From Candidatus Iainarchaeum sp. (GTDB lineage: Archaea > Iainarchaeota > Iainarchaeia > Iainarchaeales > DTGL01): a DNA stretch of 64,000 nt. The DNA is taken from NCBI GenBank assembly GCA_038736825.1, contig JAVYME010000001.1:76933-140932 (forward strand), given 5' to 3'. Positions 8,438 to 33,583 of the stretch are shown piece by piece. The notes below the pieces were generated by a model that did not search any database, had not been told where the DNA came from, and saw only the letters and a program-made list of their open reading frames with translations. Both the position numbers and the translations under genes were made by a program. Position 1 is the stretch's first letter; every line of letters begins with the position of its first letter.

Positions 8438-8450
8438 AAAGGGGATTTAA

Positions 8451-14246: not shown

Positions 14247-15758
14247 TTGCGCAAAAAAGTTAAAAATTTCGCGCCTGCTTTGTCTGTGCAAGAAAGCATT
14301 TTTTTAGGTTTTGCAAAAGGAATTATTGCACGCATTGAAGAAAACCGCCAAGGCATTGCCTTTTGGATCGCACTTCTCTATTTTGTGTGCATTGTCAAGG
14401 CAATTTTTGGCTGGTTTGCAAGCCTGCTCACAACGTTTTCAAGGCCTGTTTTTTTCCTTGCCGGCTGGCCCTTGTTCTATTTCAACATATTTATTTCACT
14501 GGCACTAATTCTCTCTTTTTTCACTAAAGAAACAGTGGATAAAACCTCAAAAGCAGTTTTTGCCTTTTCTTTCATTGTAATCATTATTCCGATTGTTGAT
14601 TTCATTGCATATGGCCCTGAAGTGTGGCGCATCTTTCCAATGAGCATTGAAGAAATTGCTGCACAGTTTTTCTCTTTAGCTGGTCTTTTGCCTGGTTCTG
14701 TCCTGCACTTGGGGCAGGGCTTGACGTTTTGGTTAGCCCAAGCCCTGATTGCAGTGTATGTTTTCACCAAAAAAGGAAGTTGGCTGAAAGCATTGGGAGC
14801 AATGTTTTGCTTTTATGTAGCCTGTTTGGCATTATCCTCAGTCCCTTTCCTTGCATCCATCCTTTTTAGCCTTGGCAACACCTACAATTACACAGTAATA
14901 ATGCACGGGCTCGCGCTATATGCGCTCTCAGCATTTTTGCTTGCTGTAATCTGGCTCTTTATCTATGACCGCGCACTCCTAAAAAAAGTGGTTTTGGAAT
15001 GCAAGCCTGAACGAGCCGCACATTATCTTGCCCTTGTGCTAATGGGCTGGCTTTATGCACTAACGCTTTTCTCAATAGAAAAGCCCAATTTTTTGGGACT
15101 TTTTTTTGCGTCATTTTCAATTTTTTTGGCATTTGAAAGTGCTCTGGCGTGCAATAATCTATTTGACAAGGAATTGAAGGGTATCAAGGCAAGGCAATAC
15201 CGCGGGATTTGCCTTTCGCTGTTCACCCTTGCCCTTGTTTTGGCATATTTTGTAGGAGAAACAATTTTTGCATTAGTGCTTTCAACAATGCTCCTTGGAA
15301 TTGCCTACTCTGCAAAGCCAATTAGCCTAAAAAATCTCGGCTTTCTCAACAATGTGGTAATAGGCCTAATTTCAGCACTCGCATTCATTGTAGGCATTAT
15401 CACACAAAACCCAAAAATTCCCTTTAATGCAACGCTTGCAGTTTTTGCAACATTCTCACTTGCAGCCAACATAAAGGACCTTAAAGACTTTGAATCCGAT
15501 AAAAGGAAGGGCATTCAAACCCTGCCAGTGCTTTTGGGCAAAGAAAAAGGATTGAAAGTGATTGCTGTGCTTTCATCAGTTTCCTTTATTATTCCAGCAG
15601 CTTTTTTAGACTATCCTAATTTATTGCTTGCGGGCATAATTTTTGGCACTCTAAACTTTCTGGCACTAATGAAAACAAAAAAAGAAACTGCAACATTTGC
15701 ACTATACTTCGCTTATGCCTTGCTATTTGCGCTTTCACTGCTTTATCGAATCCCTTGA
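14247..15758 (+). CDS. polytopic membrane protein with C-terminal UbiA-family prenyltransferase-like domain fused to a ~290-aa N-terminal membrane domain
   Basis: The second UbiA Asp-rich motif is present (KDLKDFESDKRKGIQTLPVLLG = DxxDxxxD...TLPV). The first motif is degenerate (NNLFDKELKG). About 14 predicted TM helices. Confidence 0.55.
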   Translation: MRKKVKNFAPALSVQESIFLGFAKGIIARIEENRQGIAFWIALLYFVCIVKAIFGWFASLLTTFSRPVFFLAGWPLFYFNIFISLALILSFFTKETVDKTSKAVFAFSFIVIIIPIVDFIAYGPEVWRIFPMSIEEIAAQFFSLAGLLPGSVLHLGQGLTFWLAQALIAVYVFTKKGSWLKALGAMFCFYVACLALSSVPFLASILFSLGNTYNYTVIMHGLALYALSAFLLAVIWLFIYDRALLKKVVLECKPERAAHYLALVLMGWLYALTLFSIEKPNFLGLFFASFSIFLAFESALACNNLFDKELKGIKARQYRGICLSLFTLALVLAYFVGETIFALVLSTMLLGIAYSAKPISLKNLGFLNNVVIGLISALAFIVGIITQNPKIPFNATLAVFATFSLAANIKDLKDFESDKRKGIQTLPVLLGKEKGLKVIAVLSSVSFIIPAAFLDYPNLLLAGIIFGTLNFLALMKTKKETATFALYFAYALLFALSLLYRIP

Positions 15759-15762
15759 AAAT

Positions 15763-16335
15763 TCAGGTTGCATTCGCATAAACCTTTAACAAATTGCCAC
15801 CATCAGCGCAACCAGAAATGCATGCAACCTCAAAAACCAAAACGCCCTTTTCTTTTTTTTCTGCTTTTGCGCCACTCTTTTCAACAATATCGCCAAAATA
15901 GGGCAATATAACCAAATCCAAAACCGTTGTCTTAGCCGGTGCAACAACAAACTGCACTGCAGAATAATTGGTTCCATCAATTGCTGGAGAGGTAATCGCA
16001 AATGAAAAGGTTTTGCTCGACTTGTTGGATAAAACCAATCCCGTGGATTCCCCAATTGCAATCTCTGTCAAAGAAAAACCTTGTTCTGAAAGTGGCACCT
16101 CAATCATTGACACTTTGTCAAAAGAGAGAACCAATGGTTGTGATGGTTTGTAGTCAGGGTTTTCCTTCAAAAACTGGGAAACAAAATATGGTTTCAAAAC
16201 AATATGAGGATTAGGATCTGGAGGCGGTTCGGCGGAAGGCCGTCCACCCCAATTAAAAACAAAAACAAATAAAGCCAGCAATATTGCAAAAACAACTATT
16301 CCCAAAACAGCCAGCTTCAAATACTTTTTATCCAT
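15763..16335 (-). CDS. hypothetical N-terminally anchored secreted protein
   Basis: N-terminal TM/signal anchor (LAVLGIVVFAILLALFVFVF). No recognizable domain. Convergent with the upstream gene across a 4-nt gap. Confidence 0.45.
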   Translation of the reverse strand: MDKKYLKLAVLGIVVFAILLALFVFVFNWGGRPSAEPPPDPNPHIVLKPYFVSQFLKENPDYKPSQPLVLSFDKVSMIEVPLSEQGFSLTEIAIGESTGLVLSNKSSKTFSFAITSPAIDGTNYSAVQFVVAPAKTTVLDLVILPYFGDIVEKSGAKAEKKEKGVLVFEVACISGCADGGNLLKVYANAT

Positions 16336-16388
16336 TCTATCACCAATCCAAGCATAGTAAAATTAATATATGAGGTTATATATAATGC

Positions 16389-17639
16389 TTGTGCATTACA
16401 TTGCATTGTTTTGACTCTTGTGAAGGTGAAAAATTGGAAAAATCTGGAAAAAAAGGAACTATCGTGTTTTTACTAATTACACTTTTAGTTGCACAAGTTT
16501 TTGCTGCAGATTGCCTGGATTGGATGGAATCACAATCTGGAAAAGAAGTGGGAGACAATATGAATGATGACGGCGTTTTAGGACCTGGGGAAACACTCGC
16601 AAATAATAAAACAAATAAGCCTGGAGAAATCGGAGTTAATAATGCAAGTACTGTTAAACAAATTGGCGAGAACTACATTAATGGCTCAACTGTGCCTGTA
16701 ACAATATCAAACGATAATGGCACAACAGTACAGACAGACCCAAACCTAAAATATGAACTCACTCCAATTTGGGGTTACAGCAAAGAGTACGGATTTTACG
16801 TTAGCGGTTGGAAAGTCAGTGCTGTGGAAGAGGAAACTGAAAAAGATCTGGATTTTGGTGAGGGTTGGACTCCAGTTAGTCCGACTCCAAAGCCTGTGAC
16901 CCCTACTCCAACTCCAACGATAACTCTAACGCCAACACCTACGCTAACCCCTCTCCCAAACCAAGCACCAACCGCAGACTTTGAAATGTATCCAGAGCCA
17001 GCAAATGGCATGGTTCCTTTGACTGTAAAGTTTAAAGATAAAAGTTTTGACCCAGACGGTTCCATTGTTTCATGGAATTGGGAGTTCGGGGTAGGTACAA
17101 TTGAAGGAACAAATTGTTGCACAAATAAGGAAACAAGCCATGTTTACACTTCAGCTGGCTATTATACTGTCCGGCTAACCGTAACAGACAACTTGGGGGC
17201 AACAGCATCTAATCAAAAATCTATAATTGCAATACAAAAAGCGGCAATAACAATTTTCAAATCAAACAATCCAGAAAACCCAAACCAGCCAGCACAAATT
17301 ATTATTGCATGCGGCAAGCAGGCAGCCCTCCAATTGGAATTCCTTGACAAGGACAGCCAGCCACTTTCCGGAGTTCCAACTCAACTAATGGATGGAGCTC
17401 ACGGCCTGCCATTTTGCAATATCACACCTACAATTCTCAACATAACTGGCTTTCCAAAACCAGGGCTTTATCAAATAAAGGCAAACATTCTTGGAGAGGA
17501 GTGCACTAATTGTCCAAAAACGATCCACATAGTTGTCGGTCAAGAAATGCCAGAACTCCAAACTCCAGAAATCCCAGCAATACTAACCGCAGTAATCGCA
17601 CTTGCAGTGATTGTCATCACAAACAGGAAAAAGAAATAA
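16389..17639 (+). CDS. secreted surface protein with Thr/Pro linker, PKD domain and conserved C-terminal sorting signal (PEIPAIL-TM-NRKKK)
   Basis: Signal peptide (alternative TTG start at 16434). TPTPKPVTPTPTPTITLTPTPTLTP linker. PKD-type domain (PTADFEMYP...GMVPLTVKF...WNWEFG). The C-terminal ~35 aa are almost identical to the 27182..29317 protein. Confidence 0.75.
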   Translation: MCITLHCFDSCEGEKLEKSGKKGTIVFLLITLLVAQVFAADCLDWMESQSGKEVGDNMNDDGVLGPGETLANNKTNKPGEIGVNNASTVKQIGENYINGSTVPVTISNDNGTTVQTDPNLKYELTPIWGYSKEYGFYVSGWKVSAVEEETEKDLDFGEGWTPVSPTPKPVTPTPTPTITLTPTPTLTPLPNQAPTADFEMYPEPANGMVPLTVKFKDKSFDPDGSIVSWNWEFGVGTIEGTNCCTNKETSHVYTSAGYYTVRLTVTDNLGATASNQKSIIAIQKAAITIFKSNNPENPNQPAQIIIACGKQAALQLEFLDKDSQPLSGVPTQLMDGAHGLPFCNITPTILNITGFPKPGLYQIKANILGEECTNCPKTIHIVVGQEMPELQTPEIPAILTAVIALAVIVITNRKKK

Positions 17640-17700
17640 AAAAAGCCAATATATTAGTTCAAAGAGAAAAAAAGCAGGGGGACAATTTTTGGTTTGCTCC

Positions 17701-19275
17701 CTATTTTTTTCCTTTTTTTTCTTGTGTTGATTTTTTTAACAATAGTTCTCTTTCTTGTTGTAGTTTGAGGAGTCTTTCCCTGTAAGCGCTTTCTGAAAGC
17801 CGTCTCTTGAAAAAATCCAGTTTTGCTTTTTTTTCAAGTTCTGAAATTTTTTCAAGGCGCCTTTCAATGGAGCGCTTTTCCAGTTGCTTGAGTTTTTTTC
17901 TCCAAAAAAATGCTGAAATTGAAAGAATTAAGGCTGTTATTCCGCCTCCAAAAACAATTATTTTGCCCCAATCTATGGGTTCAATTATTTCTGTTGAAAT
18001 CTTTGCTTTTCCTGAAAAAGGCGGTTTTAAAACAATTTCAATGGTGTGGGTTCCCTGTAAAGCAAATGGCAGGCTTGCAGAGCAAAAGCCTTTTTCAGTG
18101 CAGGAAAGAGTAATTGAGTGCTGTTTTTCGTCAATGTAAAGCAATGCTTCAACCTCATTGCTTGCAACTTGTTGTCCTTCCACTTGTACTTCTATTTTTG
18201 TAGCTCCGCCACGACTTTCAGTTCTGCCTTCCATTGGGAAAACGAACAAAACCTGGTTTTCAGTCGGGCTTGCCCCTTCTGGAGAAAGCATTTCAAGAGA
18301 AAAACTGTTTTTTTCAGTTTTTGTTCCAGAAGCGTTTTTGCCTGAAACAGTTATCTTCAATTCACTGTCTTTCTCGCTAACGGGGCGCGTGAATTCTGCA
18401 CTCCAGGCTCCTCCTGCAAAAGACAATTTTTTTCTTTCCAGTATTTTTTCTTTTGACAAAAGCCAAGCCTCAAAATCCCCGCTGTTGACAACAGTTTCTT
18501 TTTGGTGAAGAGAAAAGGAAATTTTTCCAACAGGCGAGCCAAAAAAATATTTCTGTTCTTCATTGAAGGGATTGCGGACTTGAATGGTTGCTGGCTTGAA
18601 GAAAAGCGGAATGAAAAAAGTTTTTTCCTTTGAGCCTGCAAGCGCTGCCTTCAATTCCAGTTTTTCAAATTCTTCAAAGGAAGCGTCTGGAACAAAAGAG
18701 CCTTCCAAAAAAAGGTTTTTGGAATCCCATTGCAAGGCAATGCTTTTGCCTTTTATTAAGGCACTAAAATGGGAAAAGGCTTCCTTTTCACTTGAACCCA
18801 AAAACCTTTGAATGTAGGAATTGTCTTTGTCCAAGAAAGCAATACGTATCTTTTTTTCAACTCCTGTTTCGATTGCAATATCCTGTCTTGCCTCTGAAGA
18901 GGGCGGCAAAAATGCTTTGAATTCAGTTCTCGTGATTCGCACTGGCACTGTTTTTTCCCCTAAAAGCATGCCGTTGTCCTTAAGCTTTATTTGTGCTTTT
19001 ACTTGAAAGGTTTTCGGGGAAAAATCTATTGCTTCAAGGTAATATGCATGGCTTGCAAAAGGGCTTTCGGTTGAAATTTCAGTGCCATCCCCAAAACTCC
19101 AAACAAAATCCAAAACGCTTTCAGGAAAATTTTCCAGCTTTAAATTGAAATCCACTGCTTGCGCTTCAAATGCCTCGCTAGTGCTCGCTGAAAGCCCGAA
19201 ATCAAGCGAGCTATGGGCAAATGGCAAAAGCAAGAAAAGAAAGGCTGCCAAAAAAAGGCTTTTTGCCATTTTCAC
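17701..19275 (-). CDS. type-I membrane surface protein (PKD-like repeats) with coiled-coil K/E/R-rich cytoplasmic tail
   Basis: N-terminal signal peptide, WSFGDGTE PKD-like motif and a C-terminal TM (ITALILSISAFFW). The tail LEKKAKLDFFKRRLSESAYRERLLKL is homologous to the tail of the upstream 1059-aa protein. Its stop overlaps the next gene's start by 4 nt. Confidence 0.7.
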   Translation of the reverse strand: MKMAKSLFLAAFLFLLLPFAHSSLDFGLSASTSEAFEAQAVDFNLKLENFPESVLDFVWSFGDGTEISTESPFASHAYYLEAIDFSPKTFQVKAQIKLKDNGMLLGEKTVPVRITRTEFKAFLPPSSEARQDIAIETGVEKKIRIAFLDKDNSYIQRFLGSSEKEAFSHFSALIKGKSIALQWDSKNLFLEGSFVPDASFEEFEKLELKAALAGSKEKTFFIPLFFKPATIQVRNPFNEEQKYFFGSPVGKISFSLHQKETVVNSGDFEAWLLSKEKILERKKLSFAGGAWSAEFTRPVSEKDSELKITVSGKNASGTKTEKNSFSLEMLSPEGASPTENQVLFVFPMEGRTESRGGATKIEVQVEGQQVASNEVEALLYIDEKQHSITLSCTEKGFCSASLPFALQGTHTIEIVLKPPFSGKAKISTEIIEPIDWGKIIVFGGGITALILSISAFFWRKKLKQLEKRSIERRLEKISELEKKAKLDFFKRRLSESAYRERLLKLQQERELLLKKSTQEKKGKK

Positions 19276-22200
19276 CTCTCCTTGTAAAGCCTTGCCAAAA
19301 CCATTTCAATTACTTTTTCACTATAGCCCTCGTTTCTAAGCCCTCTTGCCACCTCTTCTCTTGAAAACTCTCCGATTCTTCCGCAAAGTCTTGTTGTGAG
19401 CACTATGGCTTGAACTTTTTCAGGCGCTTTCTTGAAATCCTTTGAGGGAAAAACTGTTTTCCAAAAGCCTGTTTTAATCCAAAAACCGCTTTTTAATAGA
19501 GAATCAATGCATTTCAGTCCTTTGCTTAAAAGCCTTATTTGTTCGCCGAGCTCGCTTTCAGAAATATGCCTTTTGAAAAACTCAAACTTGTATTTTTTCT
19601 CCAGTCCAGTCAAGCGCTCTTTTTCCCTAAGCAAGAAAGCCCTTTCAGAAAAAACATTTCTTAAAAGCAATGCAAGGAAAACCAGGATTACAATGCAAGC
19701 AAAACCGAAAGCCAGCAAAGCAAGGCTTAAGCCTTGCTCAATGGTTGCAATAACTGTTCCTTCTCCAGAAAAATCTTCTTTTAAAACAAGCTTGAGTGAA
19801 TGCGTTCCAGCCAGCAAGGGCGAACTCAAAACCCCCTTGTGCAATTTTTCTTTTTCGTCAAACTTGAGTGAAACAGGCTGCAGGTTGCCGTCAACCAGCA
19901 AATCGCTGTTCAATGCAATGTTGGCAAACAAGTGGTTGTTGGGCTGGAAAAACCTAACACTTATCTCGCTTATTTTGCCATTCCAGGGCTTGTTCAAGCC
20001 AGCGCTGGGTTGAACAAAAACCATTTGCAGGTTGTTTGAAAGTGAAATTGTTAAAAACTCTAAATCCATCAATTCTTTGCCGTCAAGAGTGGCGTGTGCT
20101 TCAAGCCGGCAGCTCACGCTTTTTTTGCCAGAATCCTGCAATGGCAAAAGGATTTTCGCAGAATATTGCTGGCTTTCTTTATCAAAATCCATTTCCTCCA
20201 AAAAATCCAGTTCAGGGCATTCCACAATGATTTTTTTGTTTTTAACCTTGTAATTGTCTGAAAGAATTTTTGCCTTCAAGTTAACTGTTTGCCCGAAAGC
20301 ATACTCGCGCTCACTGTTCACTGGCTCCAATATTGAAATAACCAGTGCCGAGTTTTTTGCAAGCGGAACCGCTTGCACTTCATCAACCTTGTTGCCTGCA
20401 GCATCCCTGCCCTTCAATTTCAACTTTAAACCATGCAAAAAATCGGTTTCATTCACAGTATGGTCAAAATAAAGCGTGTAATCAAACTCGTTTTTTTCAA
20501 TTCTCACTTCTTCCTCTTTTTTGCCTGAAACAAGCACTGCCCTTAACTCGCTTGGAAAAACCACGATTATGCCGTTCAACAAAAACATTACTTTGGCTTT
20601 TTCAAGGGAATCAAGCAAAAAATATTTTTTGCCCTTGAAGACATTGGTTGCCTTGAAAAAAGAAGGCTCAAAAAACACTGGCGCTTTTGCATGGAACTCG
20701 CGCTTTTCCCCCTTAACCTCACTCAAAGCATGAATTTCCAAGAATTCAGTTTCAGAAAGCGAACTCCAAGGCTTAAAAATTCCCTCAAAAATTGTTCCAG
20801 AACAATGCATTTCAACCAGCGAGCCAGCAAGCAAAACCCTGAGCGAAATTCCTTGACAAGCAATCCTTTCATCGGCTTCATCCAAAAACTCCAAGCGCAC
20901 ATTCAAATCCCTTTGCTTTGAATTTGTCTGCACATGGGTTGGCTCCAAAACTCTTGCCTTAAACTTGGACTTTAAAACCTTAACCTTAACCTCTGCGCCT
21001 GCAGTCTGCCCTTTGGAATCACTAACGCGAACCTTCACCAAAAACTCTCGCTCTTTCTCCAAACCCAAAAAATAAGCGTGAAATGCCTCTCTCTGGCTTG
21101 CATTAGAGTCATCACCGAAATCCCAGAAAAATTCAAGCGACTCTTCATTCAAAGCATTAGTGATTGCAGTGAAATAAAAATATTGTCCTTCAAATTGCTG
21201 CCTGCTTTCAGGGTCAACCAGTACTGTCAAAACCTGCAATGGCTCGTCCTTTAAAGAAGTTTTAAAGGACAAAACAGGGCTTTCCCTTGAAAGGCTTTGC
21301 GTTGAAGAAACTGCCTTGAAAAAATAGTTTGTTTCCGGTTTCAATCCAAGCAAGTGGATTTTGTGGTGAATTGTTTTAGTGCCGTCAAAAACCCTTGAAC
21401 CCAAAGCACTGGTTTCACCGAACTCCACTGCAGAATCGGATTGCACTAAAGTGTTCCAGTAAACCTTTGCATGAGTGGCAAAAGCAAAAACCTGAACATT
21501 TTTTGGATCAATATCCTGCAATCCTGCTTTCAAAATGCAGCGGTTTTCTTGACTGCAATAAAAGCCTTCCTCGCACTTTGCAGTGCAATCAATTTTTTGC
21601 CCGCAATTATTGCTTTTAGAACCACACTCGCTCTCGGAACACGAAAGGGCTTTGCAGCATTTTCCATTAATGCAATTCCAGCCAGCACTGCAAGAGCACT
21701 GAATTGTGCCACCGCAATCATTTGAAAAAGAACCGCATTGTCCTGCAAAATCCCTTGAACACGACTTGCAGGATTGCAAGCATTTCCCGTTCAAGCAACC
21801 CCCCGAACAAAACTCGCTTTCAATCCTCGAGCAATCCGCATTAGAGTAAACCCTTGTAGAACCAGAACAAAACCATCCTTGAACACAAGGTTGAAGCAAA
21901 CCACTAGAAGCAGCACTAGAACCCTGTGGTTTGCACTCAGGACACAAAGAACTGCCATCACCTGATTGTGATAAATTTTGTCCTGGCATTTGATAAACAG
22001 CTGCAGGAGAGCCCTTAGCTTTTGATTGCAAATAATCATCATATGGGTCGCCCCCCTTAGACAAATCCTCATAAGAACCACCGGCAGGTGCCGCTCCATC
22101 ATCTTGTCCTAGCTCATTTACTCCTCCTGTAGCTCCTGTTTGACTCAAGCCATCATCATTTTGGACAAAAGTTGGAGTGGAAGCGCCATCAGCAGCCCCG

Positions 22201-22451
22201 CTAGGCAAACTTGGGCCAGGCGAGTTGTTAGTTGGGGGATTGAGTGCGTCGTCTGAAACAGGGCAATCTGGACAGTAGTATGCGCCTGTGCCTTCGGTTA
22301 CAGCAAAATATGCTGTTTTTTCTTTAGGCAAGGCTAATGAAAAGAAACCGGTTTTTTCGCTTAAAATGGTTTCATAAAACAGCCAGGTTATGGCTAGCAC
22401 TAAAACTATTGCCAACAAAAAGGCAGGCTTTTTTGAAAAAACTGAAGGCAT
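19272..22451 (-). CDS. giant type-I membrane surface protein: acidic G/D/S/P-rich region, Cys-rich EGF/laminin-like module, FN3/PKD-like repeats, TM and ~150-aa cytoplasmic tail
   Basis: 1059 aa with signal anchor and a run of CxxxxC repeats (CSGGCLNGKCLQSCKSC...CGQKIDCTAKCEEGFYC). WDFGDDSNA PKD-like and PETNYFFKAVS FN3-like motifs. C-terminal TM followed by LEKKYKFEFFKRHISESELGEQIRLL. Confidence 0.75.
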   Translation of the reverse strand: MPSVFSKKPAFLLAIVLVLAITWLFYETILSEKTGFFSLALPKEKTAYFAVTEGTGAYYCPDCPVSDDALNPPTNNSPGPSLPSGAADGASTPTFVQNDDGLSQTGATGGVNELGQDDGAAPAGGSYEDLSKGGDPYDDYLQSKAKGSPAAVYQMPGQNLSQSGDGSSLCPECKPQGSSAASSGLLQPCVQGWFCSGSTRVYSNADCSRIESEFCSGGCLNGKCLQSCKSCSRDFAGQCGSFSNDCGGTIQCSCSAGWNCINGKCCKALSCSESECGSKSNNCGQKIDCTAKCEEGFYCSQENRCILKAGLQDIDPKNVQVFAFATHAKVYWNTLVQSDSAVEFGETSALGSRVFDGTKTIHHKIHLLGLKPETNYFFKAVSSTQSLSRESPVLSFKTSLKDEPLQVLTVLVDPESRQQFEGQYFYFTAITNALNEESLEFFWDFGDDSNASQREAFHAYFLGLEKEREFLVKVRVSDSKGQTAGAEVKVKVLKSKFKARVLEPTHVQTNSKQRDLNVRLEFLDEADERIACQGISLRVLLAGSLVEMHCSGTIFEGIFKPWSSLSETEFLEIHALSEVKGEKREFHAKAPVFFEPSFFKATNVFKGKKYFLLDSLEKAKVMFLLNGIIVVFPSELRAVLVSGKKEEEVRIEKNEFDYTLYFDHTVNETDFLHGLKLKLKGRDAAGNKVDEVQAVPLAKNSALVISILEPVNSEREYAFGQTVNLKAKILSDNYKVKNKKIIVECPELDFLEEMDFDKESQQYSAKILLPLQDSGKKSVSCRLEAHATLDGKELMDLEFLTISLSNNLQMVFVQPSAGLNKPWNGKISEISVRFFQPNNHLFANIALNSDLLVDGNLQPVSLKFDEKEKLHKGVLSSPLLAGTHSLKLVLKEDFSGEGTVIATIEQGLSLALLAFGFACIVILVFLALLLRNVFSERAFLLREKERLTGLEKKYKFEFFKRHISESELGEQIRLLSKGLKCIDSLLKSGFWIKTGFWKTVFPSKDFKKAPEKVQAIVLTTRLCGRIGEFSREEVARGLRNEGYSEKVIEMVLARLYKER

Positions 22452-22654
22452 ACTATACTTAAGGTTTCTTTTTTATTAATCTTTTCCTTGCTCTTTCAGA
22501 AAGGTTTGAGAAAGCAAAACCATTAAAACACAAAAAAACAGCAAAACAATAAAAAGTTATGGCCAGGCAGTGCAATTAAAAACATTTTTAAAAACATACA
22601 ACATAACTATTTTTAATTAAATAATGAAATTTTTTGGCGTGGAGGGGTTTGAGA

Positions 22655-23926: not shown

Positions 23927-23953
23927 AACCGCATGTATTTTTTCTTTTGACAA

Positions 23954-25457: not shown

Positions 25458-25895
25458 ATGGATTTTTTTTTGGGTTCAGACCATGGCGGGTATCCCTTAA
25501 AGGAAAAAGTCAAAAAATGGCTGGAAAGCGAAGGCCATTCAATAAAAGATTTTGGCTGTTTTTCAGTGGAAAGCTGTGATTATCCCGAGTTTGCTGAAAA
25601 GGTTGCAAGAGCAGTTACAAAAAATAAAGATTCAATTGGATTGCTTTTTTGCGGCACTGGAATTGGCATGAGCATTGCAGCAAACAAAATCAAGGGAATA
25701 CGGGCAGCACTCTTGCATAACGCTTTTGAGGGAAAAATGGCAAAAGAGCACAACAATGCAAACGTGCTCTGCTTTGGAGGCAGAACTGTTTCTTTCAGGA
25801 ATGCAAAAAAGGCAATCACTGCTTTTTTAAAGGCAGAATTTGTGGGCGGCAGGCATTTGCGGAGAATAGAAAAAATTGCAGCACTCGAGAGATGA
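25458..25895 (+). CDS. rpiB: ribose-5-phosphate isomerase B (RpiB/LacA family)
   Basis: LGSDHGGYPLKE...FCGTGIGMSIAANKIKGIRAAL is characteristic of RpiB. 145 aa. Confidence 0.9.
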   Translation: MDFFLGSDHGGYPLKEKVKKWLESEGHSIKDFGCFSVESCDYPEFAEKVARAVTKNKDSIGLLFCGTGIGMSIAANKIKGIRAALLHNAFEGKMAKEHNNANVLCFGGRTVSFRNAKKAITAFLKAEFVGGRHLRRIEKIAALER

Positions 25896-26317
25896 AAATG
25901 TTTGAATTGTTTGAGCACAAGGCAGACATTGGAGTGCGCGGTTATGGAAAAACGCTTGAAGAAGCCTTTCAAGAGTGCGCGAAGGCAATGTTCAGCGTAA
26001 TGTCAAACCTGAAAAAAGTCAAAGCCAGAGAAAGCATTGAATTGCGAGTTAGAGCGAGAAATGAAGAAGAATTGCTTGTTGCCTGGTTAAACGAATTATT
26101 GTTTGAAAAAGGCACAAAAGAAATGCTGTTCTCTGAATTCAAAGTGAAAATTTCAAAGGAAAAAGAAGGACTGGTTTTGAAAGGCACAGTGAAAGGCGAA
26201 AAAATGAACCACAAAAAACATGAAATGAAAACAGAAGTCAAAGGAGCAACCTATTCTGGCTTGAAAGTGATTAAAGAAAAAGAAAAGTATTTAGCGCAAT
26301 GCATTGTCGATGTATAA
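25892..26317 (+). CDS. archease (RtcB ligase activator)
   Basis: MFELFEHKADIGVRGYGKTLEEAFQECAKAMFSVM matches the archease N-terminal signature. 141 aa. Overlaps the rpiB stop. Confidence 0.85.
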   Translation: MKMFELFEHKADIGVRGYGKTLEEAFQECAKAMFSVMSNLKKVKARESIELRVRARNEEELLVAWLNELLFEKGTKEMLFSEFKVKISKEKEGLVLKGTVKGEKMNHKKHEMKTEVKGATYSGLKVIKEKEKYLAQCIVDV

Positions 26318-26379
26318 AGCAATTGCAGCAAAGCCGCGTGGTTTGACAATAATGTTTAAATAGTGGAAATGCGTAATAT

Positions 26380-27185
26380 TTGAGAATGAAAAGATTTGGT
26401 TTTTTGCCTTCAGTTTTTTACTGTCTCGCCATGTTCGGCTTGATTTTCACGCTAGTGGCAGCCCAAGAAGAAGTAAGGCAGCTTTCCATTAAAATTGAAG
26501 GCTTGCGCTATGTAAGGCATGAAACAGTAACCATTACGGCGCTTTTTGATGGGCAACCCGTTGCTGGCGTTGATGTAAATGTTTTTTTCAAAGATTTGAA
26601 CCTGAAAAAACAGACCAAAACAAAATAATATTGCAAAGAATAGAAGATTATAAGACAGACAGTCAAGGCAAGTTTTCCTTTAAATTGCATGAAGCCGGCA
26701 CTTACTTTTTATTTTTTGCCAAAAAAGAAGGAACCATTTTTTACGCAGCAAGCGAAAAAATAGATTTTTTGATAAATCCAAGACCATATTTCAGTGCAAG
26801 CAATGGCGTTTACAATCTTTGCTTTAGGGAACCAATTGGCTCAATAACAATCATTGAAGGCGAGAAAAGAACAACCCAAAGCCTTGATGAAAACAATTGC
26901 ACTCAATACTCTCCAAAAACAGAGTCCTTCACAGTTGAAACCCCTTACAGCAAAGAATTCAAAAAGATTTCAATACCAGTAAAAGTTGAAACAGAAAAAC
27001 CAACCCCTGTCCCAACACAACCCACTCCAATACAAACACAATTTGAAGAAAAAACAAAGCCGATTTCACAACCAAAAACACAAACCCAGCCAGACTTACT
27101 GTTACCTATCAGCATATTGTTAGTTGCAAGCATATGCTTGGTTGCTGCAGGAGTTTACCTCAGAAAACGGAGGATGAATTCATGA
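26380..27185 (+). pseudogene. frameshift-interrupted gene for a small surface protein (signal peptide + carboxypeptidase-regulatory/transthyretin-like beta-sandwich + Thr/Pro linker + C-terminal TM anchor)
   Basis: Two consecutive ORFs (26380..26628 in frame 1, 26631..27185 in frame 0) together encode one domain (VTITALFDGQPVAGVDVNVFF | YKTDSQGKFSFKLHEAGTYF). Frame 0 is open from 26574. A T7 run (26582-26588) and an A6 run (26605-26610) lie in the overlap. Confidence 0.5.
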
Positions 27186-29317
27186 AAAAAATACTCTTTG
27201 TTTTGGCTCTTTTTTTAATGCTTTCCTGTGCCAATGCAGCAAAAAAAATCCAGCTCACTGTAGAAGACGACGGCATTGACCCAGTAACCCCAGAAGAAGA
27301 TGCTGACACAAAAGACAAAGCATACCTTGTAGTAGGACCAGGGCCTTACACTTTGACAGTCAAAATCCAAAACTTGCAGGAAATAGAAGAGTTTGGCGGT
27401 CCAGTTGATGTAATGGCTTTATTTGATGCCAGTTATAGCTTTAATGATGAAATCGAGGTTGTCAAAAATGACATAGAAAAACTTGGAGCAGAACTGGATC
27501 AAAACTGCCAAAAAATAGGCATTCCGGGGTGCTTCAATTTAGGGCTTTACGTTTTTGAAGGAGGCACTTGCGCTAGAAATTGTTCCAACCAATATGTTTG
27601 CACTCAAATAAATTGCAGAATAGTCACAGTTAAAGATTGGTGCACTGAGTGTACTGTAATAACAATTCCAGGCAAGTGCCAAGTTTGCGATTATGAAACT
27701 GAATGCCGTGAGGTTTGTGAATTGCGTGATAACGTGAAAGTATGCTGGCCAGAGTGCCACGAAGTGCCAAAAAACTGTCGAATGGAGCCATGTGACACAT
27801 ACAAGTGGGATTGCAAACTAGTGCCTTGCTTTGTAGAAGAAGAGGTATGCGATGAACATTGTGAATGGCAAGAAGTTTGTGGTTGGACTGTGTGCAAAAG
27901 GCCTGATGCTGCTTTTTGGAATTCCACTGATTTCCAGCAACCAGTGACTCCGCCATTGCCTTTGGATTATGCAAACGATGTTGGCTTGCTTCCCATAACA
28001 AACAATATGACGCTTGTCAAAAACAACTTGGAAAAAATTAGTGCTCCAAACTTTTCAACACAACAGCTAGAGCCATGGGGTAGCATTATAACCTATGTTT
28101 TGAATGCACCTGAAGTAAAATGGCAGGAAAACCACCGGAGGGCAATAATATTAATCACGGATGAAAAAGATGATTCTGGCACTTACAAGACTGCAGCACA
28201 ACTTGCAAAAGACCAAAACGTGGTTGTGTTCGGCATTATTGGAAAAGGAGTGGGTTCAGATGAAGCGAAAGCCAATGCTGAATATGTTGCAAACCTGACA
28301 GGCGGAAAGGTTTTCACTTATACAAATTCTGAAGAAATAAAAGCCCTATTGCGTGAAATAATGGGCTCACTCATAAAAGAAGACACTTTTGTTTTTTCAA
28401 AAGAATTAGGGCCTAACTGGGATGGAATAACTGCAAATTTTGATCTGCCGCCGGTTCCAAGAAAGGGACCCGGACTTGTTTACCCAATCAAGGGCCTTGC
28501 TCCAGCGGTTTGGCCTACAACTGAGGAATATTTCCATTACAGGGTTTCCTTGAAAAGCAATCCGGCTGTTTTTGATGATGCTTGGGTTAGAGTGACCATT
28601 AATACGCCGCCAACTGCCGATTTTGAAATGATTCCAACTCCGCCAACTGGAATGGTGCCTTTAAGCGTAAAATTCGTCAACAAATCAACAGACAACGAAG
28701 GAAACATTACAAACTACCATTGGGTTTTTGGCGATCCATCTTCAGGAGCAGACAATGAAAGTAATGAAGAAAACCCAACACACGTTTTCCAATATGCTGG
28801 AGAATATTCAGTCACTCTTACAGTAACCGACAGCGGGCAAGCAAGTCACAGTGTTACAAAAAAAGTCATGGCAAAAGAAAGGCCCCTAATTTCTGCGTTC
28901 AAGGCGAATAATCCCAAGACACCAGATGAAGGACTGGACATCACGGTTTACTGCACAAAATTCCAAGCCTTAATCAAAATAGAAATACTGGACAAGGATG
29001 GATTGTTGGTGACAAAGGACAAAGACGGCAACCCCATAACAAACCCAATAAAAATTCCTGGAACAAATGATTGGCCGAGATGCGGAAGCACCATTAGCCC
29101 TGACATCAGGCTTTCAAGCGGAGTCTACCAAATAAGGGCAACAATAATGAAAGATGATGGCAGCGGTCCAGACCCGGATTGCACTAATTGTCCGAAAAGC
29201 ACACACATAACCGTGGGAATGAGCGCACCAGAAATGCAAACCCCAGAAATTCCAGCAATACTAACAACAATAATAGCGCTTGCAGTGATTGTCATTACAA
29301 ACAGGAAAAAGAAATAG
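27182..29317 (+). CDS. secreted multidomain surface protein: vWA-like domain (MIDAS DxSxS) with Cys-rich insertion, PKD domain, conserved C-terminal sorting signal (PEIPAIL-TM-NRKKK)
   Basis: Start chosen at MKKILFVLALFLMLSCANA, preceded by GGAGG. LFDASYSFNDE (DxSxS), AIILITDEKDD, VVVFGIIG. 26 Cys within ~120 aa. PTADFEMIPTPPTGMVPLSVKF PKD. C-terminus is near-identical to the 16389..17639 protein. Confidence 0.75.
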   Translation: MKKILFVLALFLMLSCANAAKKIQLTVEDDGIDPVTPEEDADTKDKAYLVVGPGPYTLTVKIQNLQEIEEFGGPVDVMALFDASYSFNDEIEVVKNDIEKLGAELDQNCQKIGIPGCFNLGLYVFEGGTCARNCSNQYVCTQINCRIVTVKDWCTECTVITIPGKCQVCDYETECREVCELRDNVKVCWPECHEVPKNCRMEPCDTYKWDCKLVPCFVEEEVCDEHCEWQEVCGWTVCKRPDAAFWNSTDFQQPVTPPLPLDYANDVGLLPITNNMTLVKNNLEKISAPNFSTQQLEPWGSIITYVLNAPEVKWQENHRRAIILITDEKDDSGTYKTAAQLAKDQNVVVFGIIGKGVGSDEAKANAEYVANLTGGKVFTYTNSEEIKALLREIMGSLIKEDTFVFSKELGPNWDGITANFDLPPVPRKGPGLVYPIKGLAPAVWPTTEEYFHYRVSLKSNPAVFDDAWVRVTINTPPTADFEMIPTPPTGMVPLSVKFVNKSTDNEGNITNYHWVFGDPSSGADNESNEENPTHVFQYAGEYSVTLTVTDSGQASHSVTKKVMAKERPLISAFKANNPKTPDEGLDITVYCTKFQALIKIEILDKDGLLVTKDKDGNPITNPIKIPGTNDWPRCGSTISPDIRLSSGVYQIRATIMKDDGSGPDPDCTNCPKSTHITVGMSAPEMQTPEIPAILTTIIALAVIVITNRKKK

Positions 29318-29383
29318 GCTTTGCTGGCAGAGCACTAGTTTCTTTTTTTAATCCTTAATTTCCAAATATTTTAGGTTTTTTCT

Positions 29384-30826
29384 ATGGCATTGTTAAAAAT
29401 AAGGGATTTTGTTTGGGAAATCCCGAAAGAGGGAAAAATGCGCGTTCCAGCAAGGCTTTACGTGGACCAAAAAATGATTCAAGAACTGGAACGCGAAGAG
29501 CAAACCAATTGGAGCACTTTAAGGCAGTTGAAAAACATTGCTTCCCTGCCTGGCATTCAAAGCCCTGCACTGGCTTTGGCTGACTGCCATCCAGGTTATG
29601 GCGCGCCAATTGGCAGTGTTGCCGCCATGGATTTAAAGGAAGGCGTTATTTCTTTTGGATGCATTGGGTTTGATGTGAATTGTGGAGTGCGCACTCTTGC
29701 AACCCTGTTAAAAAAAAGCGAAGTGGAGAAAAGGAAAAAAGAGCTTGCAGAAGAGCTTTTCAAAAACGTGCCAGCAGGGCTTGGCGTTACAGGAAAACTC
29801 AAATTAAGCCAAAGCGAAATTGACGAGGTTTTAGTGAAAGGCGCTGAATTTTCCCTTGCAAAAGGTTATGGTTTCAAAGAGGACTTGGAGTTCATTGAAA
29901 TGAATGGAAAAGCAAGGGACGCAAACCCGGAAAATGTTTCGCTCAAGGCAAAACAAAGACAGTTCAAGGAAGTCGGCACTCTTGGTTCAGGCAATCATTA
30001 CCTGGAAGTGCAATTCGTGGAAAAAATATTCGATGAAGAAATCGCACAAGCCTTTGGATTGTTTGAAGGGCAAATCGTTGCAAGCATTCACTGTGGAAGC
30101 AGGGCATTGGGCCACCAGATTGGCGCAGACTATCTGGTGGAACTGAAAAAAGCCTCAGAAAAATACAAATTGCATTTGGCAGACCCTGAACTGGTGTCAG
30201 CGCCAATTGAAAGCGAAGAGGGAAAAAAATATTTTTCCGCTGTGAGCGCTGGAATGAATTGCGCTTTTGCAAACAGGCAGGTTTTAGCACACCTTGCAAG
30301 GGAATCCTTTGCAAGGGTTTTTGGAGTGAATGAAAGGGAAATACGGACTTTTTACGAGGTTGGCCATAATACTGCAAAAATAGAAGAGCATGAAGTGGAA
30401 GGAAAGCAAAAGGAATTGCTTGTGCAAAGAAAAGGCTCTACAAGGGGTTTTGGCCCTGAAAGGAAAGAAGTGCCAGCACAGTATAGAAAGTTTGGACAGC
30501 CAGTACTGGTTGGCGGGACAATGGGCACTGCCAGCTATGTTTTGGCTGGAACAATAAAAGGAATGAAGGAAACCTTTGGTTCGGCAGTGCATGGTGCTGG
30601 AAGAAAACTTAGCCGGAATGCAGCAATCAAGTCTTTCAAGGGAGAACAAATTGCAACAGAATTGAACAAAAAGGGAATAATAATCAAAACGCATTCATGG
30701 AAAGGCATTTCAGAGGAAGCTCCTCAAGCTTACAAGGACATAGATGAAGTAATAGAAATAATGGCTGTCACAGGAATCAGCAGAAAAGTTGCAAGGCTCA
30801 AGCCAATGATAACAATAAAGGGATGA
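29384..30826 (+). CDS. rtcB: RNA-splicing ligase RtcB
   Basis: GSGNHYLEVQ..., HCGSRALGHQ and HNTAKIEEHE motifs. 480 aa. Confidence 0.93.
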   Translation: MALLKIRDFVWEIPKEGKMRVPARLYVDQKMIQELEREEQTNWSTLRQLKNIASLPGIQSPALALADCHPGYGAPIGSVAAMDLKEGVISFGCIGFDVNCGVRTLATLLKKSEVEKRKKELAEELFKNVPAGLGVTGKLKLSQSEIDEVLVKGAEFSLAKGYGFKEDLEFIEMNGKARDANPENVSLKAKQRQFKEVGTLGSGNHYLEVQFVEKIFDEEIAQAFGLFEGQIVASIHCGSRALGHQIGADYLVELKKASEKYKLHLADPELVSAPIESEEGKKYFSAVSAGMNCAFANRQVLAHLARESFARVFGVNEREIRTFYEVGHNTAKIEEHEVEGKQKELLVQRKGSTRGFGPERKEVPAQYRKFGQPVLVGGTMGTASYVLAGTIKGMKETFGSAVHGAGRKLSRNAAIKSFKGEQIATELNKKGIIIKTHSWKGISEEAPQAYKDIDEVIEIMAVTGISRKVARLKPMITIKG

Positions 30827-32292
30827 AAATGCAGTTAGAGGAAAAAAAAATCCTTTTTTTAACATTGTTCTTTTTCTTTATTTCTTTTGGTGTAAGGCTT
30901 TCATTAATGGAATTAAGGCCATTGCATCACGATGAGGGCGTGAATGGCTATTTTATAAGCAATATAGTGGAAGGACGCGGCTGGAAATATGATCCAGAAA
31001 ACTATCATGGACCGACATTTTTCTACATAACAGCGGTTTCTTTCCTTGCTTTCGGCGGAAATATTTTTGCGCTCAGGATTGTGCCAGTAATTTTTGGCTG
31101 CCTGCTGGTGCTAGTGCCATTCCTTCTCAGAAAAAGGCTCGGGTTTTGGGGTGTGCTAACAAGCACGTTTTTCCTCGCTTTCTCACCTGCACTCCTCTAT
31201 TATTCCATGGATGCAATTCACGAAATCCTCTTCACGTTTTTCATGACTGCATCGCTCGTGCTTTTCCTTGAATTTGCTTCAGAAAAAAAGCCATGGATGC
31301 TTTTCGGGGGAAGCGCTTGCCTTGCAATGTTTTTGGCTACAAAGGAAGCTGCCTTCATAATAGGCCCTTTTATAGTGATTCTTGCAATTTTCTTCAGTTT
31401 TGCAAAGGAAAAAAAAACAGAGAATAAATTGGAAGGCAAAAAAATTGCATTTTTAATTGAATTTTTAGTTGCAATTGCAATATTTTTTTCAATTTACATT
31501 CCTCTTTTCACTTCTTTTTTTCAGAACTGGAATGGGTTGGAGGATTCTGTTAAAACCCTTGGATTGTGGGGTCCAAGAGTGATTGTGGAAAAAGGTCATG
31601 ACAAGCCTTTCCCTTATTATTCTGGATTGCTGTTGTTCAGCGAGTTGCCGCTTCTAGTGGCAGGCATTGCGGGAATGCTTTTGGCGTTCTGGAAAAGGAA
31701 CGTTTATTTTTGCGTTATCGGCGTTTTTTTCATTGCAATGTTTTTAGGGGTTTCCGCTGTTCCCTACAAAACCCCTTGGATTGCAATAAACTTTTTGCCG
31801 CCTCTTGCGCTTCTCTCGGGATTTACAGCAAGAGAGTTTTTTGGCGTTAAAACTGGACTTTCAAGGCAAGCCGGCTTGCTGGTGCTAGGAGTGGTTTTTG
31901 CTCTTGTGTTATGGCAATCATATTATGTGAATGTTGTTGCTCCTGCAGCAGAGCGCTCTGAGGAAAATCCCTGGGTTTATGTGCAGACAACAATGAGTGC
32001 AAAGAAGGCATTTGAAAGGGCACTGGCAGCAGATGGAAAAATCCTCATTGCATTGGAGAATGAGAGCACTTGGCCCATGCCTTGGCTTTTAAGGGAAAAA
32101 AAAGTGGAATACCATGGAAGGGACTCTTTGGAGTCTGCTGAATTCTTGCATGGTTTTGAAGTGCTCATAGTGCACAGGAATCTGGGGGAAATTGTTGTAG
32201 GAAAGATTCCAGAATATGAGCGCTTTGGGTTTGATTTGCGTCCAGGAGTGCCTTTGGATGCATTTTTCGCGCAAAAAAAGCAAAATCCCTGA
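30823..32292 (+). CDS. GT-C fold glycosyltransferase-like polytopic membrane protein (PMT_2/ArnT/TIGR03663-like)
   Basis: N-terminal loop LRPLHHDEGVNGYFISNIVEGRGWKYDPENYHGPTFFY resembles the DE-containing first loop of GT39/GT83 enzymes. About 11 TM helices. 4-nt overlap with rtcB. Confidence 0.55.
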   Translation: MKMQLEEKKILFLTLFFFFISFGVRLSLMELRPLHHDEGVNGYFISNIVEGRGWKYDPENYHGPTFFYITAVSFLAFGGNIFALRIVPVIFGCLLVLVPFLLRKRLGFWGVLTSTFFLAFSPALLYYSMDAIHEILFTFFMTASLVLFLEFASEKKPWMLFGGSACLAMFLATKEAAFIIGPFIVILAIFFSFAKEKKTENKLEGKKIAFLIEFLVAIAIFFSIYIPLFTSFFQNWNGLEDSVKTLGLWGPRVIVEKGHDKPFPYYSGLLLFSELPLLVAGIAGMLLAFWKRNVYFCVIGVFFIAMFLGVSAVPYKTPWIAINFLPPLALLSGFTAREFFGVKTGLSRQAGLLVLGVVFALVLWQSYYVNVVAPAAERSEENPWVYVQTTMSAKKAFERALAADGKILIALENESTWPMPWLLREKKVEYHGRDSLESAEFLHGFEVLIVHRNLGEIVVGKIPEYERFGFDLRPGVPLDAFFAQKKQNP

Positions 32293-32368
32293 TTTTAACT
32301 TGTTAACTCAATAAAAGGAAATATTTAAATACTTGAAGGGCGCTATTTATTATATCTACTAAATCCGG

Positions 32369-33583
32369 GTGGTTGGTTTGAGGAATGAATTTTTTGCTCT
32401 AGCCGTTTTTTCGCTCTTGCTTTTGGGCAGCAATGCTTTTGCCTTGCCCAACTGCAACATGGTTTTCTTTGAATTGTACAATGTGGAATTATGGGAAGGC
32501 TCCAAGGAAACATTCACTTTTGCAATTAACAACACAGGCAATGAAAGATTCTACATTGACAAAGTAAACGCTTTTGATTTCTCTGAGGGAATTGCAGTGC
32601 AAGAAGAATACTGGGGCGACGTAGTTCTCCCAGGAGAAAAAGCCTTTGCCACAATATCCGTTAAAGCAGACAAAGGAACAGAGGAAAGGGAAAGAAAGGC
32701 ATACATAGAGCTCAGCGGCCGCTTTTTGGGAGGAAAAAGGTGTTCTTTTTCGGATGTGCACGGCGAATTCAATGTAAGCGTGCTCAAAGAACCAGTGCAC
32801 AAGATTGAACCCAGGTGTGATGGCTTTTCACTCACTGCCCCAAAAGAAAAATACATTGAGGGCGAAGGCACAATAGAGTTTTTTGCCTCAAACAAAACCA
32901 ATTATGATGCAATCATAACACTGGAAAGCGAAAGCATTAGCGTAAGCGAAAGCGTTTTCCAGTTAAGGAAAGGCGAAGAAAAAAAGTTTTCTGCCTTCAT
33001 TAAAAGCGATGCTGACCGGGCAACACTCAAATACAATGTAAGGGTAAGCGATTGCGGCATACCCTCTCAGGAAACAAGAATTTATTCAGCAATGGAAACA
33101 CCAATTCCAACACCAACCCCTCAACCCTTTAAAGCCATTGAAATAGGAGCATCAGCCTCTAAAGACGCAAACGGCTTCCTTGTAACAGTGGAAATCCACA
33201 ATCCAAACAGTGAAGGCATTATCGGAAACCTTGAAGCAATTGTGCCACAAGGGTGGACTGTAATAGGGGAAAAGGCGGTTTTGGCTGAACCTCTTTCAAA
33301 AACAATTTCCCTTATAAGGATTGCACCACCAAAGGGAGCAAGCGGAACACACCCCGTACAAATAGTATTTTCATATGATGGAATTGAGGAAAGCACAAAA
33401 TTAGAGCTTGCAACCGGAAGCGAAGGCTTTGACTTTGGCGGAGCAGCCTTTGCAGTGCTTGGCTCAGGAGCATTCCTTATAGGACTAATAATCGTGGCAA
33501 TAATACTGATAATAATGCTTTTCTCAAGCCCGCCAAGGCAATACTTTGAACCATGGCTGGAAGCAAAGGAAACCAAAAAATGA
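32369..33583 (+). CDS. secreted surface protein with C-terminal TM anchor
   Basis: Signal peptide, short Thr/Pro linker (ETPIPTPTPQPF), C-terminal hydrophobic helix and a short basic tail. No recognizable catalytic domain. Confidence 0.5.
   Translation: MVGLRNEFFALAVFSLLLLGSNAFALPNCNMVFFELYNVELWEGSKETFTFAINNTGNERFYIDKVNAFDFSEGIAVQEEYWGDVVLPGEKAFATISVKADKGTEERERKAYIELSGRFLGGKRCSFSDVHGEFNVSVLKEPVHKIEPRCDGFSLTAPKEKYIEGEGTIEFFASNKTNYDAIITLESESISVSESVFQLRKGEEKKFSAFIKSDADRATLKYNVRVSDCGIPSQETRIYSAMETPIPTPTPQPFKAIEIGASASKDANGFLVTVEIHNPNSEGIIGNLEAIVPQGWTVIGEKAVLAEPLSKTISLIRIAPPKGASGTHPVQIVFSYDGIEESTKLELATGSEGFDFGGAAFAVLGSGAFLIGLIIVAIILIIMLFSSPPRQYFEPWLEAKETKK

Follow-up and report, generated by a model that had tools for sequence, protein, structure and literature searches.

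What separates the genes for ribosomal proteins S10 and L3 in an archaeon assigned to Candidatus Iainarchaeum? The question was raised by a 64,000-nt stretch of contig JAVYME010000001.1 (assembly GCA_038736825.1, positions 76,933 to 140,932; "the window" denotes this whole stretch), in which the S10-to-L3 gap measures 19.6 kb and carries 14 genes, i01 to i14, at 14247-33583 ("the interval"). A first-pass annotation had described the interval as an accessory island of surface-protein cargo inserted between two ribosomal protein clusters. Comparison with related genomes and with other Archaea led us to a different reading: we consider it about 80% probable that the interval is a vertically inherited, fast-evolving neighborhood of surface and housekeeping genes in a gap that is typical of the class, with no insertion of a block.

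The genomic contexts of relatives were gathered via archease, chosen as the anchor because it is independent of the island content, and the related loci used for comparison carry L-numbers (L001, L081 and so on). In addition, 80 archaeal loci anchored on EF-1alpha were surveyed for S10/L3 spacing. The EF-1alpha of the window was 93% identical to that of L081; its identity to those of the metagenome-assembled genomes (MAGs) that the species collection labels Candidatus Iainarchaeum was 73-83%. The protein database lists the archease, i05 and i14 of the window under a 'Candidatus Diapherotrites archaeon' MAG, named there as archease or as hypothetical proteins (tags QXK06_00375 to QXK06_00425).

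The S10-L3 gap in relatives and in other Archaea

Examination of the 80 EF-1alpha-anchored loci revealed that S10 follows EF-1alpha nearly everywhere. L3 was located less than 10 kb downstream of S10 in the Iainarchaeota-like group only, where it never adjoined S10; among the other archaeal loci with a full 10-kb flank (about 28), L3 lay within 10 kb downstream of S10 in none. Published gene orders likewise place uS10 always apart from uL3-uL4-uL23 in Archaea, at the end of the str/L30e cluster (PMC10833476). Separation of S10 and L3 is the archaeal norm, and therefore their linkage, not their separation, is the derived feature here.

The gap measured 4.7 kb in L011, 6.7 kb in L008, 6.8 kb in L107, 7.0 kb in L012, 8.9 kb in L014, 15.3 kb in L081, 17.0 kb in L109 and at least 18.8 kb in L082, compared with 19.6 kb in the window. 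An insertion between formerly joined genes, as the first-pass annotation had it, finds no footing in these loci: S10 and L3 were non-adjacent in every genome examined, and the gap held archease and RtcB in all gap-measured loci except L012. RpiB and a GT-C protein were often present as well, and a homolog of i14 stood upstream of L3 in all gap-measured loci. Archease was identified inside the gap in L002, L008, L009, L010, L011, L013, L014, L081, L082, L107, L108 and L109, and RpiB adjoins it in L081, L082, L108, L109 and L011. In the window locus, RtcB and archease are both full-length above curated thresholds and 3 kb apart; they adjoin each other in L011 and L107, the short gaps of which hold 5 genes in 4.7 kb and 6 genes, respectively. 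The RtcB of the window shared 85% identity with that of L081, 77% with L082, 75% with L109, 69% with L108 and 64% with L107. The claim that the interval carries surface cargo instead of core genes had overlooked RpiB, archease and RtcB.

We also compared gene content and order. Positional orthologs were found for 13 of the 14 genes in L081, L082, L109, L110 or L001, mostly in the same order; i07 was the sole gene without a counterpart in any relative's interval. The flanks were perfectly collinear in all relatives and the gap was not. The order in L082/L083 is nearly that of the window: UbiA, i02(-), PKD, i04(-), i05(-), i06, RpiB, archease, two small genes, PKD, RtcB, GT-C, i14, a 202-aa gene and L3, with (-) marking the minus strand. 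L081 reads S10, i04(-), i05(-), i06, DUF4258/DUF2283, RpiB, archease, i02(-), a PKD protein, RtcB, GT-C, i14, a 193-aa gene and L3, and L109 reads S10, i04(-), i05(-), a 415-aa gene, RpiB, archease, i10, a full-length i11 with a vWA head, RtcB, GT-C, i14, two genes and L3. Two shorter loci gave RtcB, GT-C, i14, a 193-aa gene and L3 (L110), and S10, UbiA and i02(-) up to the contig end (L001).

Composition did not set the interval apart. The guanine-cytosine (GC) content was 0.38-0.44 throughout, the ranges of GC at third codon positions (GC3) per gene overlapped between island and flanks, and tetranucleotide distances were 0.16-0.20 for the island and 0.13-0.19 for the flanks. Two of the checks that the first-pass annotation had proposed, synteny and composition, were run and went against it: relatives carry the same genes in the same order with similar composition, and the accessory-island reading therefore fails.

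Plasticity of the gap and competing explanations

At genus-to-order depth, the gap shows far more plasticity than the collinear flanks do. Mean identities of core versus membrane or surface genes were 85 versus 49% in L081, 68 versus 43% in L082 and 70 versus 40% in L109. Surface proteins diverge at about double the rate of core genes. Modules have also moved. In L108, the UbiA gene follows archease and the GT-C gene follows S10; between archease and RtcB, i10 and the vWA-headed i11 of the window and L109 correspond to an i02-like gene and a differently headed PKD protein in L081 and L082. Two PKD genes of L082 (2472-3617 and 12199-13344) share 78.7% DNA identity over 1151 bp, indicating that a PKD gene was recently duplicated in the gap or that gene conversion took place there. 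The earlier description of a variable locus in a syntenic backbone holds at genus-to-order depth, with gap lengths of 4.7-19.6 kb, modules that were gained, lost, duplicated or moved, and swapped N-terminal heads of PKD proteins; at the level of strains, the one testable case does not support it.

In the history that we favor, the gap lies between two tandem conserved clusters, rpo...EF-1alpha-S10 and L3...spc, and is typical of the Iainarchaeota (Diapherotrites). Its old inherited core would comprise archease and RtcB (tRNA splicing ligation), usually RpiB, usually an Agl23-like GT-C protein, and an i14-type protein. In the subclade of the window the gap would have grown to 15-20 kb by accumulating, duplicating and shuffling PKD-type single-pass genes (the i04/i05 pair, i06, and the i02/i03 and i10/i11 modules), and would also have gained a UbiA-family membrane enzyme. 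Change at the locus would proceed by fast divergence, swaps of N-terminal heads, duplication or gene conversion of paralogs and small insertions and deletions (indels), and the slot upstream of RpiB would take up selfish or defense-type genes, namely a PDC-S01 ATPase here and toxin-antitoxin genes in relatives.

The alternative that fares best, and which we still regard as quite unlikely, is a hypervariable contingency locus, in which recombination among paralogs or a diversity-generating mechanism would create variation between strains for host switching or evasion. It can draw on the paralogous modules within the locus, on the L082 PKD pair (79% DNA identity) and an 89-nt patch in the window (89% identical), on the heads swapped between genera on a conserved C-terminal module, on the frameshift in i10, and on the finding that hypothetical cell-surface proteins of Nanoarchaeota have the highest densities of non-synonymous single-nucleotide polymorphisms (SNPs) (PMC6142677). 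Against it, the one related population that could be compared, represented by three contigs with identical archease from three samples, was 99.96% identical over 18.8 kb with no indels across the interval. This was the only testable case for the strain-to-strain variability that had been thought likely, and it showed none. A diversity-generating retroelement (DGR) or phase variation was considered and rejected: no reverse transcriptase domain was seen in the island open reading frames (ORFs), there was no template/variable repeat pair, and in the only repeat pair of DGR relevance, the i03/i11 anchor, mismatches were not adenine-specific. In several relatives, contig ends shortly past S10 had resembled a hot spot of assembly breaks. 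Contigs of relatives broke upstream of EF-1alpha in 7/14 cases and downstream in 9/14; these frequencies are similar, there is therefore no signal of assembly fragmentation, and the breaks were rejected as evidence of microdiversity.

A horizontally acquired island, with surface cargo inserted between formerly adjacent ribosomal protein operons, appears very unlikely. The features that suggested it are real. A hydrophobicity scan for signal and anchor segments identified eight proteins with a signal and/or a single anchor (i02, i03, i04, i05, i06, i10, i11 and i14), in agreement with the at least eight reported earlier, plus two polytopic proteins (i01 and i13). Membrane or secreted proteins thus account for 10/14 island genes compared with 1/17 tested flank genes (Fisher P = 3.5e-4), the sole flank call being an internal hydrophobic stretch in EF-2. 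Six strand switches occur within an otherwise single-strand region, namely the five already listed and a sixth at about 16.36 kb that had been missed, and i07 is unique to this genome and slightly AT-richer. These features are opposed by the lack of S10-L3 adjacency in relatives or other Archaea (see also PMC10833476), by the three housekeeping genes inside the interval, by the 13/14 genes with positional orthologs, whose identity drops in step with that of the core genes, and by a composition indistinguishable from the flanks. There were also no marks of mobility: no tRNA gene was present in the whole window, an Rfam scan of the interval gave no matches, no flanking repeats were found at the interval, and no integrase or transposase domain was detected in any island ORF (Pfam).

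A chimeric assembly or binning join that placed foreign surface genes between the conserved clusters can practically be set aside: the source is a MAG, and contigs of relatives often break at conserved genes such as EF-1alpha, but the same arrangement was recovered independently in at least five assemblies made by different projects, with contigs of 277 kb and 853 kb among them, and composition was uniform.

Several observations count against vertical inheritance of a shared neighborhood, or limit what it can explain. The UbiA-i02-i03 genes adjoin S10 in L001, L082 and the window and are absent there in the closer L081 and in L109. A small secreted gene lies between i14 and L3 in four relatives (L081 17310-17891, L110 2910-3491, L082 17894-18502 and L109 15561-16247), encoding a protein with a basic Ser/Thr/Lys-rich tail; it is absent in the window, which has a 237-nt spacer (33584-33820) instead. 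The i07 ATPase is found in the window alone. The three near-identical contigs may derive from related samples, and the population-level comparison concerns a relative and not the species of the window, for which no same-species genome was found. The structural model of i14 is modest (mean predicted local distance difference test score, pLDDT, 70, with domains at about 70-90; predicted template modelling score, pTM, 0.34; 7-sequence alignment). Finally, export, anchoring, glycosylation and adhesion are read from sequence alone.

The slot just upstream of RpiB was occupied by different genes in different loci: i07 in the window, an 80-aa gene together with a PIN gene in L108, and a DUF4258/DUF2283 pair in L081. 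This has the look of a small hot spot at which selfish or defense-type genes insert. PADLOC PDC families are, by their naming, candidates only. The i07 protein matched PADLOC PDC-S01 (PDLC04787) over its full length (363.6 bits; residues 41-441, profile positions 9-408 of 412) and sits in a slot that is occupied by toxin-antitoxin genes in relatives; it is a single gene without partner genes, and its defense role is a candidate one. The GC content of i07 was 0.379 compared with about 0.42. An exact 19-nt T-rich repeat, GTATTTTTTCTTTTGACAA, was observed at 18441-18459, inside i04, and at 23935-23953, within the 27-nt stop-to-stop spacer of i06 and i07; it may be due to chance or may be a trace of the i07 insertion.

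Proteins encoded in the interval

The ORFs of the first-pass annotation were all present (Table 1). Its PKD (i03, i11), vWA (i11), FN3-like (i05) and Cys-rich (i05, i11) modules and its Thr/Pro linkers (i03, i10, i14) were borne out, and Pfam or NCBIfam matches confirmed the GT-C-like protein (i13), the UbiA-like fusion (i01) and the COG1373 ATPase (i07).

Table 1. Genes of the S10-L3 interval and the two ribosomal protein genes that bound it (window coordinates; TM, transmembrane)
Feature	Position	Strand	Matches and remarks
Ribosomal protein S10, left anchor	13925-14233	+	Pfam Ribosomal_S10 101.8 bits; collinear in all relatives
i01, 12-TM protein, 503 aa, UbiA-family C-terminal half	14247-15758	+	Pfam UbiA 68.6 bits
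i02, small N-terminally anchored protein, C-terminal CxxxC motif	15763-16335	-	
i03, secreted PKD protein, Thr/Pro linker, Ig-like Cys-containing domain, C-terminal anchor	16389-17639	+	PKD 57.3 bits
i04, type I membrane protein, short-head paralog of i05	17701-19275	-	
i05, 1059-aa type I membrane protein	19272-22451	-	
i06, secreted, Cys-containing N-terminal domain, long Ser/Thr-rich tail	22634-23926	+	24% Ser+Thr
i07, AAA_14+DUF4143 (COG1373-type) ATPase	23954-25285	-	Pfam 106.9 and 111.1 bits
i08, RpiB (ribose-5-phosphate isomerase B)	25458-25895	+	LacAB_rpiB 186.9 bits; TIGR01120 177 bits (cut-off 139)
i09, archease (RtcB activator)	25892-26317	+	Pfam Archease 154.5 bits (cut-off 25); NF001617 142.7 (cut-off 126)
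i10, small secreted, C-terminally anchored, Pro/Thr linker, frameshifted	~26386-27185	+	Downstream intact ORF 26631-27185
i11, secreted, Cys-rich vWA head, PKD, Ig-like domain, C-terminal anchor	27134-29317	+	VWA 27.6 bits (cut-off 23.8); PKD_4 55 bits
i12, RtcB tRNA-splicing ligase	29384-30826	+	Pfam RtcB 516.4 bits (cut-off 27)
i13, GT-C-fold membrane protein, TIGR03663/Agl23 family	30823-32292	+	TIGR03663 199.6 bits (cut-off 126.25); PMT and PMT_2 matches
i14, signal, three predicted beta-sandwich domains, Pro/Thr linker, C-terminal TM helix	32369-33583	+	
Ribosomal protein L3, right anchor	33821-34849	+	Pfam Ribosomal_L3 260 bits; collinear in relatives

The i04 and i05 proteins share 26-28% identity. 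In i04, the signal is followed by a PKD-like domain and a beta-rich stalk, and the TM helix leads into a coiled-coil-like cytoplasmic tail. The order in i05 is signal, acidic low-complexity region, Cys-rich modules (33 Cys in the whole protein), FN3-like domain (a Pur_ac_phosph_N match), PKD, beta-rich stalk, TM helix and a cytoplasmic tail that is conserved. PKD scores were above gathering in i03 and i11 and below it in i04 and i05 (19.4 and 24.6 bits; cut-offs 23.5 and 27), with clear PKD domains in members of the i04 and i05 families. Orthologs of i05 in L081, L082 and L109 were 58%, 39% and 39% identical over about 80-85% of the length; those of i04 (46% in L081, 33% in L082, 32% in L109) invariably lay immediately downstream of i05 in the same orientation.

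The i05 protein is listed at NCBI as hypothetical protein QXK06_00375. An exhaustive HMMER search with its family-specific half recovered 81 cluster representatives among 1.84 billion, of which 17 had E <= 1e-30. In family members, N-terminal heads of varying type (FN3-like, PKD, Big_x) are joined to a conserved PKD-proximal stalk with one TM helix and the tail. A word-indexed search with i05 matched the protein itself and the L081 copy only, and a metagenome scan with the i05 alignment gave only weak FN3-domain matches and did not recover the L082 contig itself. The tail of i04 (17701-17900) and residues ~940-1059 of i05 (19275-19640) were among the best-conserved parts across genera. These tails contain the motifs EKERLLGLEKKYKFEFFKRHI and GRIGEFSREEIA..EGYS and gave a weak RecX_HTH1 match (E = 0.004). 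Such conservation may point to a role in signalling or to a partner inside the cell.

The i02 and i03 genes are transcribed divergently, and the same divergent pair recurs in L081 and, with two copies each, in L082 and L108. Orthologs of i02 were 41% (L081) and 38% (L082) identical, and i02 matched no Pfam or NCBIfam family. The i03 protein is a paralog of the C-terminal third of i11, with 45% identity over 243 aa. The 3' ends that encode their anchors (17498-17638 and 29176-29316) contain the 89-nt repeat with 89% DNA identity, and the uniform tail may be a sorting signal kept by selection or by gene conversion. Tails of this family follow the pattern CxNCPK...(E)TPE[IMTV], a hydrophobic helix and an RKK basic cluster. 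This conserved tripartite shape of motif, helix and basic cluster resembles archaeal C-terminal sorting signals (PGF-CTERM/archaeosortase, Loki-CTERM, Heimdall-CTERM); unlike Loki-CTERM proteins, the i03 and i11 tails scored 18.5 and 17.9 bits against that NCBIfam model, under its curated cut-off of 19.9, and the tails of relatives gave no match.

A full-length ortholog of i11, which has 29 Cys, was found only in L109 (39% identity, 99% coverage); L081 and L082 carry different heads on the same C-terminal module. The real start of i11 is probably the ATG near 27182. Just upstream, i10 is frameshifted near 26.59-26.67 kb in this assembly, in a homopolymer-rich stretch. Its signal part (~26386-26630) and body (26586-27173) lie in two frames, both of which align to an intact 261-aa ortholog in L109 (43% identity), and the split reflects a genuine pseudogene or else an error in the assembly. 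Orthologs of i06 were 51% identical in L082 and 28% in L081, in the latter as an intact ORF (7819-9000) missed by the gene caller.

The i14 type is the class-wide surface protein of the gap and adjoins L3 or lies close upstream of it. Orthologs were 62-66% identical in L081 and L110, 49% in L082 and 41% in L109, and homologs with 23-32% identity were found in L108, L107, L011, L008, L012, L013 and L014. The i14 protein was also considered as an S-layer or major envelope protein, and no Pfam or NCBIfam family matched it. An AlphaFold2 model placed three beta-sandwich domains between a signal helix and a C-terminal helix, and comparison with the PDB yielded generic tandem Ig/PapD/ASH-like arrays only (TM-score ~0.2). 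For the surface proteins in general we infer Sec export, anchoring by the C-terminal helix, probable glycosylation, by the neighboring Agl23-like protein, and an envelope or adhesion role. Host interaction is plausible for a DPANN archaeon.

Two polytopic membrane proteins accompany these proteins. The UbiA match of i01 covers residues 313-487 (Pfam cut-off 34.2), and its N-terminal membrane half is uncharacterized. Assignment as digeranylgeranylglyceryl phosphate (DGGGP) synthase was tried and rejected, with equivalog models at 51-59 bits compared with cut-offs of 269-353; by its domain match, i01 is classed as a UbiA-superfamily member of unassigned specificity. It follows S10 in the window and L001 (41-45% identity in L001 and L082), heads the L082 locus upstream of the i02 ortholog, follows archease in L108 (34%), and has no counterpart in the interval of L081 or L109. 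The TIGR03663 match of i13 spans model positions 7-432 of 435, and the gene overlaps the RtcB stop codon. Orthologs directly follow RtcB in L081 and L110 (67.5%), L082 (48%) and L109 (46%); in L108 the ortholog (42%) is placed after S10. From the family name, i13 would act in N-glycosylation.

These pieces could be combined into a dedicated envelope cassette. The i14 family would be the main envelope protein, made together with the Agl23-like GT-C protein and placed upstream of L3 for high expression, and the additions of the subclade would be receptor-like proteins (the i04/i05 family) and PKD adhesins with a new TPE-type sorting signal. We regard this proposal as speculative and rather improbable.

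The RtcB ORF of L008 (2493-5435) is 980 aa long with an in-frame insertion, and in-frame insertions were also observed in EF-2 of L004, L006, L009 and L013; these insertions measure about 0.5-1.5 kb and are probable inteins. The EF-2 and RtcB of the window are uninterrupted, and the best NCBIfam match of its RtcB is the intein-containing RtcB model. In the more distant relatives L003 (11692-12858), L007 (2731-3903) and L035 (11624-12994), a divergent RtcB-family paralog (~30% identity) directly follows S10 and replaces archease and canonical RtcB.

On the left, ORFs and Pfam matches identified RNA polymerase subunits, EF-2, EF-1alpha and S10, in the order rpoB-rpoA-L30e-NusA-S12-S7-EF2-EF1alpha-S10, which is also annotated in L107 and L108. 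On the right, L3 opens an L3-L4-L23-L2-S19-L22-S3... cluster, and the flank also encodes aIF2-gamma, SecY, an IF-2/aIF5B-type GTPase and an aminoacyl-tRNA synthetase of class I (Glu/Gln type). At 53777-55571 the translation genes are joined by two others, for a TrmB-family regulator and a Memo-like protein (247 bits). The flanks are thus the core machinery reported earlier, although these two genes show that the right one is not purely information-processing.

Relation to known gene neighborhoods

The DPANN archaeon GW2011_AR10, which we take to be a member of the Diapherotrites, provides a parallel for the gap. Its gene order has been given as '...EF(1a)-S10)-5HPs-...(L3-L4...', where HPs are hypothetical proteins (PMC10833476). 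As in the window, a str/L30e cluster ends with EF-1alpha-S10 and is followed by a short non-ribosomal block and then by L3-L4-L23-L2, and the short gaps of L011 and L107 match the '5 HPs' description. In contrast, the spacer of the window is about 4 times longer (14 genes, 19.6 kb), and genes of the kind left as 'HPs' in that paper are here archease, RtcB, RpiB, an Agl23-like GT-C protein and surface proteins.

Multigene insertions between the str, S10 and spc operons have been described in Gammaproteobacteria (PMC6735719). The two cases are alike in that translation superclusters are parted by small non-mobile gene sets that are then inherited vertically. They differ in their starting point: in the bacterial system S10 is the first gene of the L3 operon and the contiguous state is the ancestral one, whereas archaeal S10 belongs to the EF-1alpha cluster.

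A further likeness exists to the surface proteins of Nanoarchaeota, which are single-pass or secreted hypotheticals whose evolution outpaces that of the remaining genome and which have been proposed to mediate host contact (PMC6142677). That study concerned SNPs within populations; here the divergence is between genera, and the lone population comparison revealed no variation.

Taken together, these data describe a locus that is ordinary in kind, with surface families that are themselves uncharacterized, and it opens no new kind of system. A run of secreted proteins with strand switches between ribosomal clusters mimics an island, and comparison reveals inherited content. The analysis gives names to the 'hypothetical proteins' that part S10 from L3 in Diapherotrites-type genomes, and it provides a short list of clade-restricted, fast-evolving surface proteins for the study of envelope building or partner attachment.

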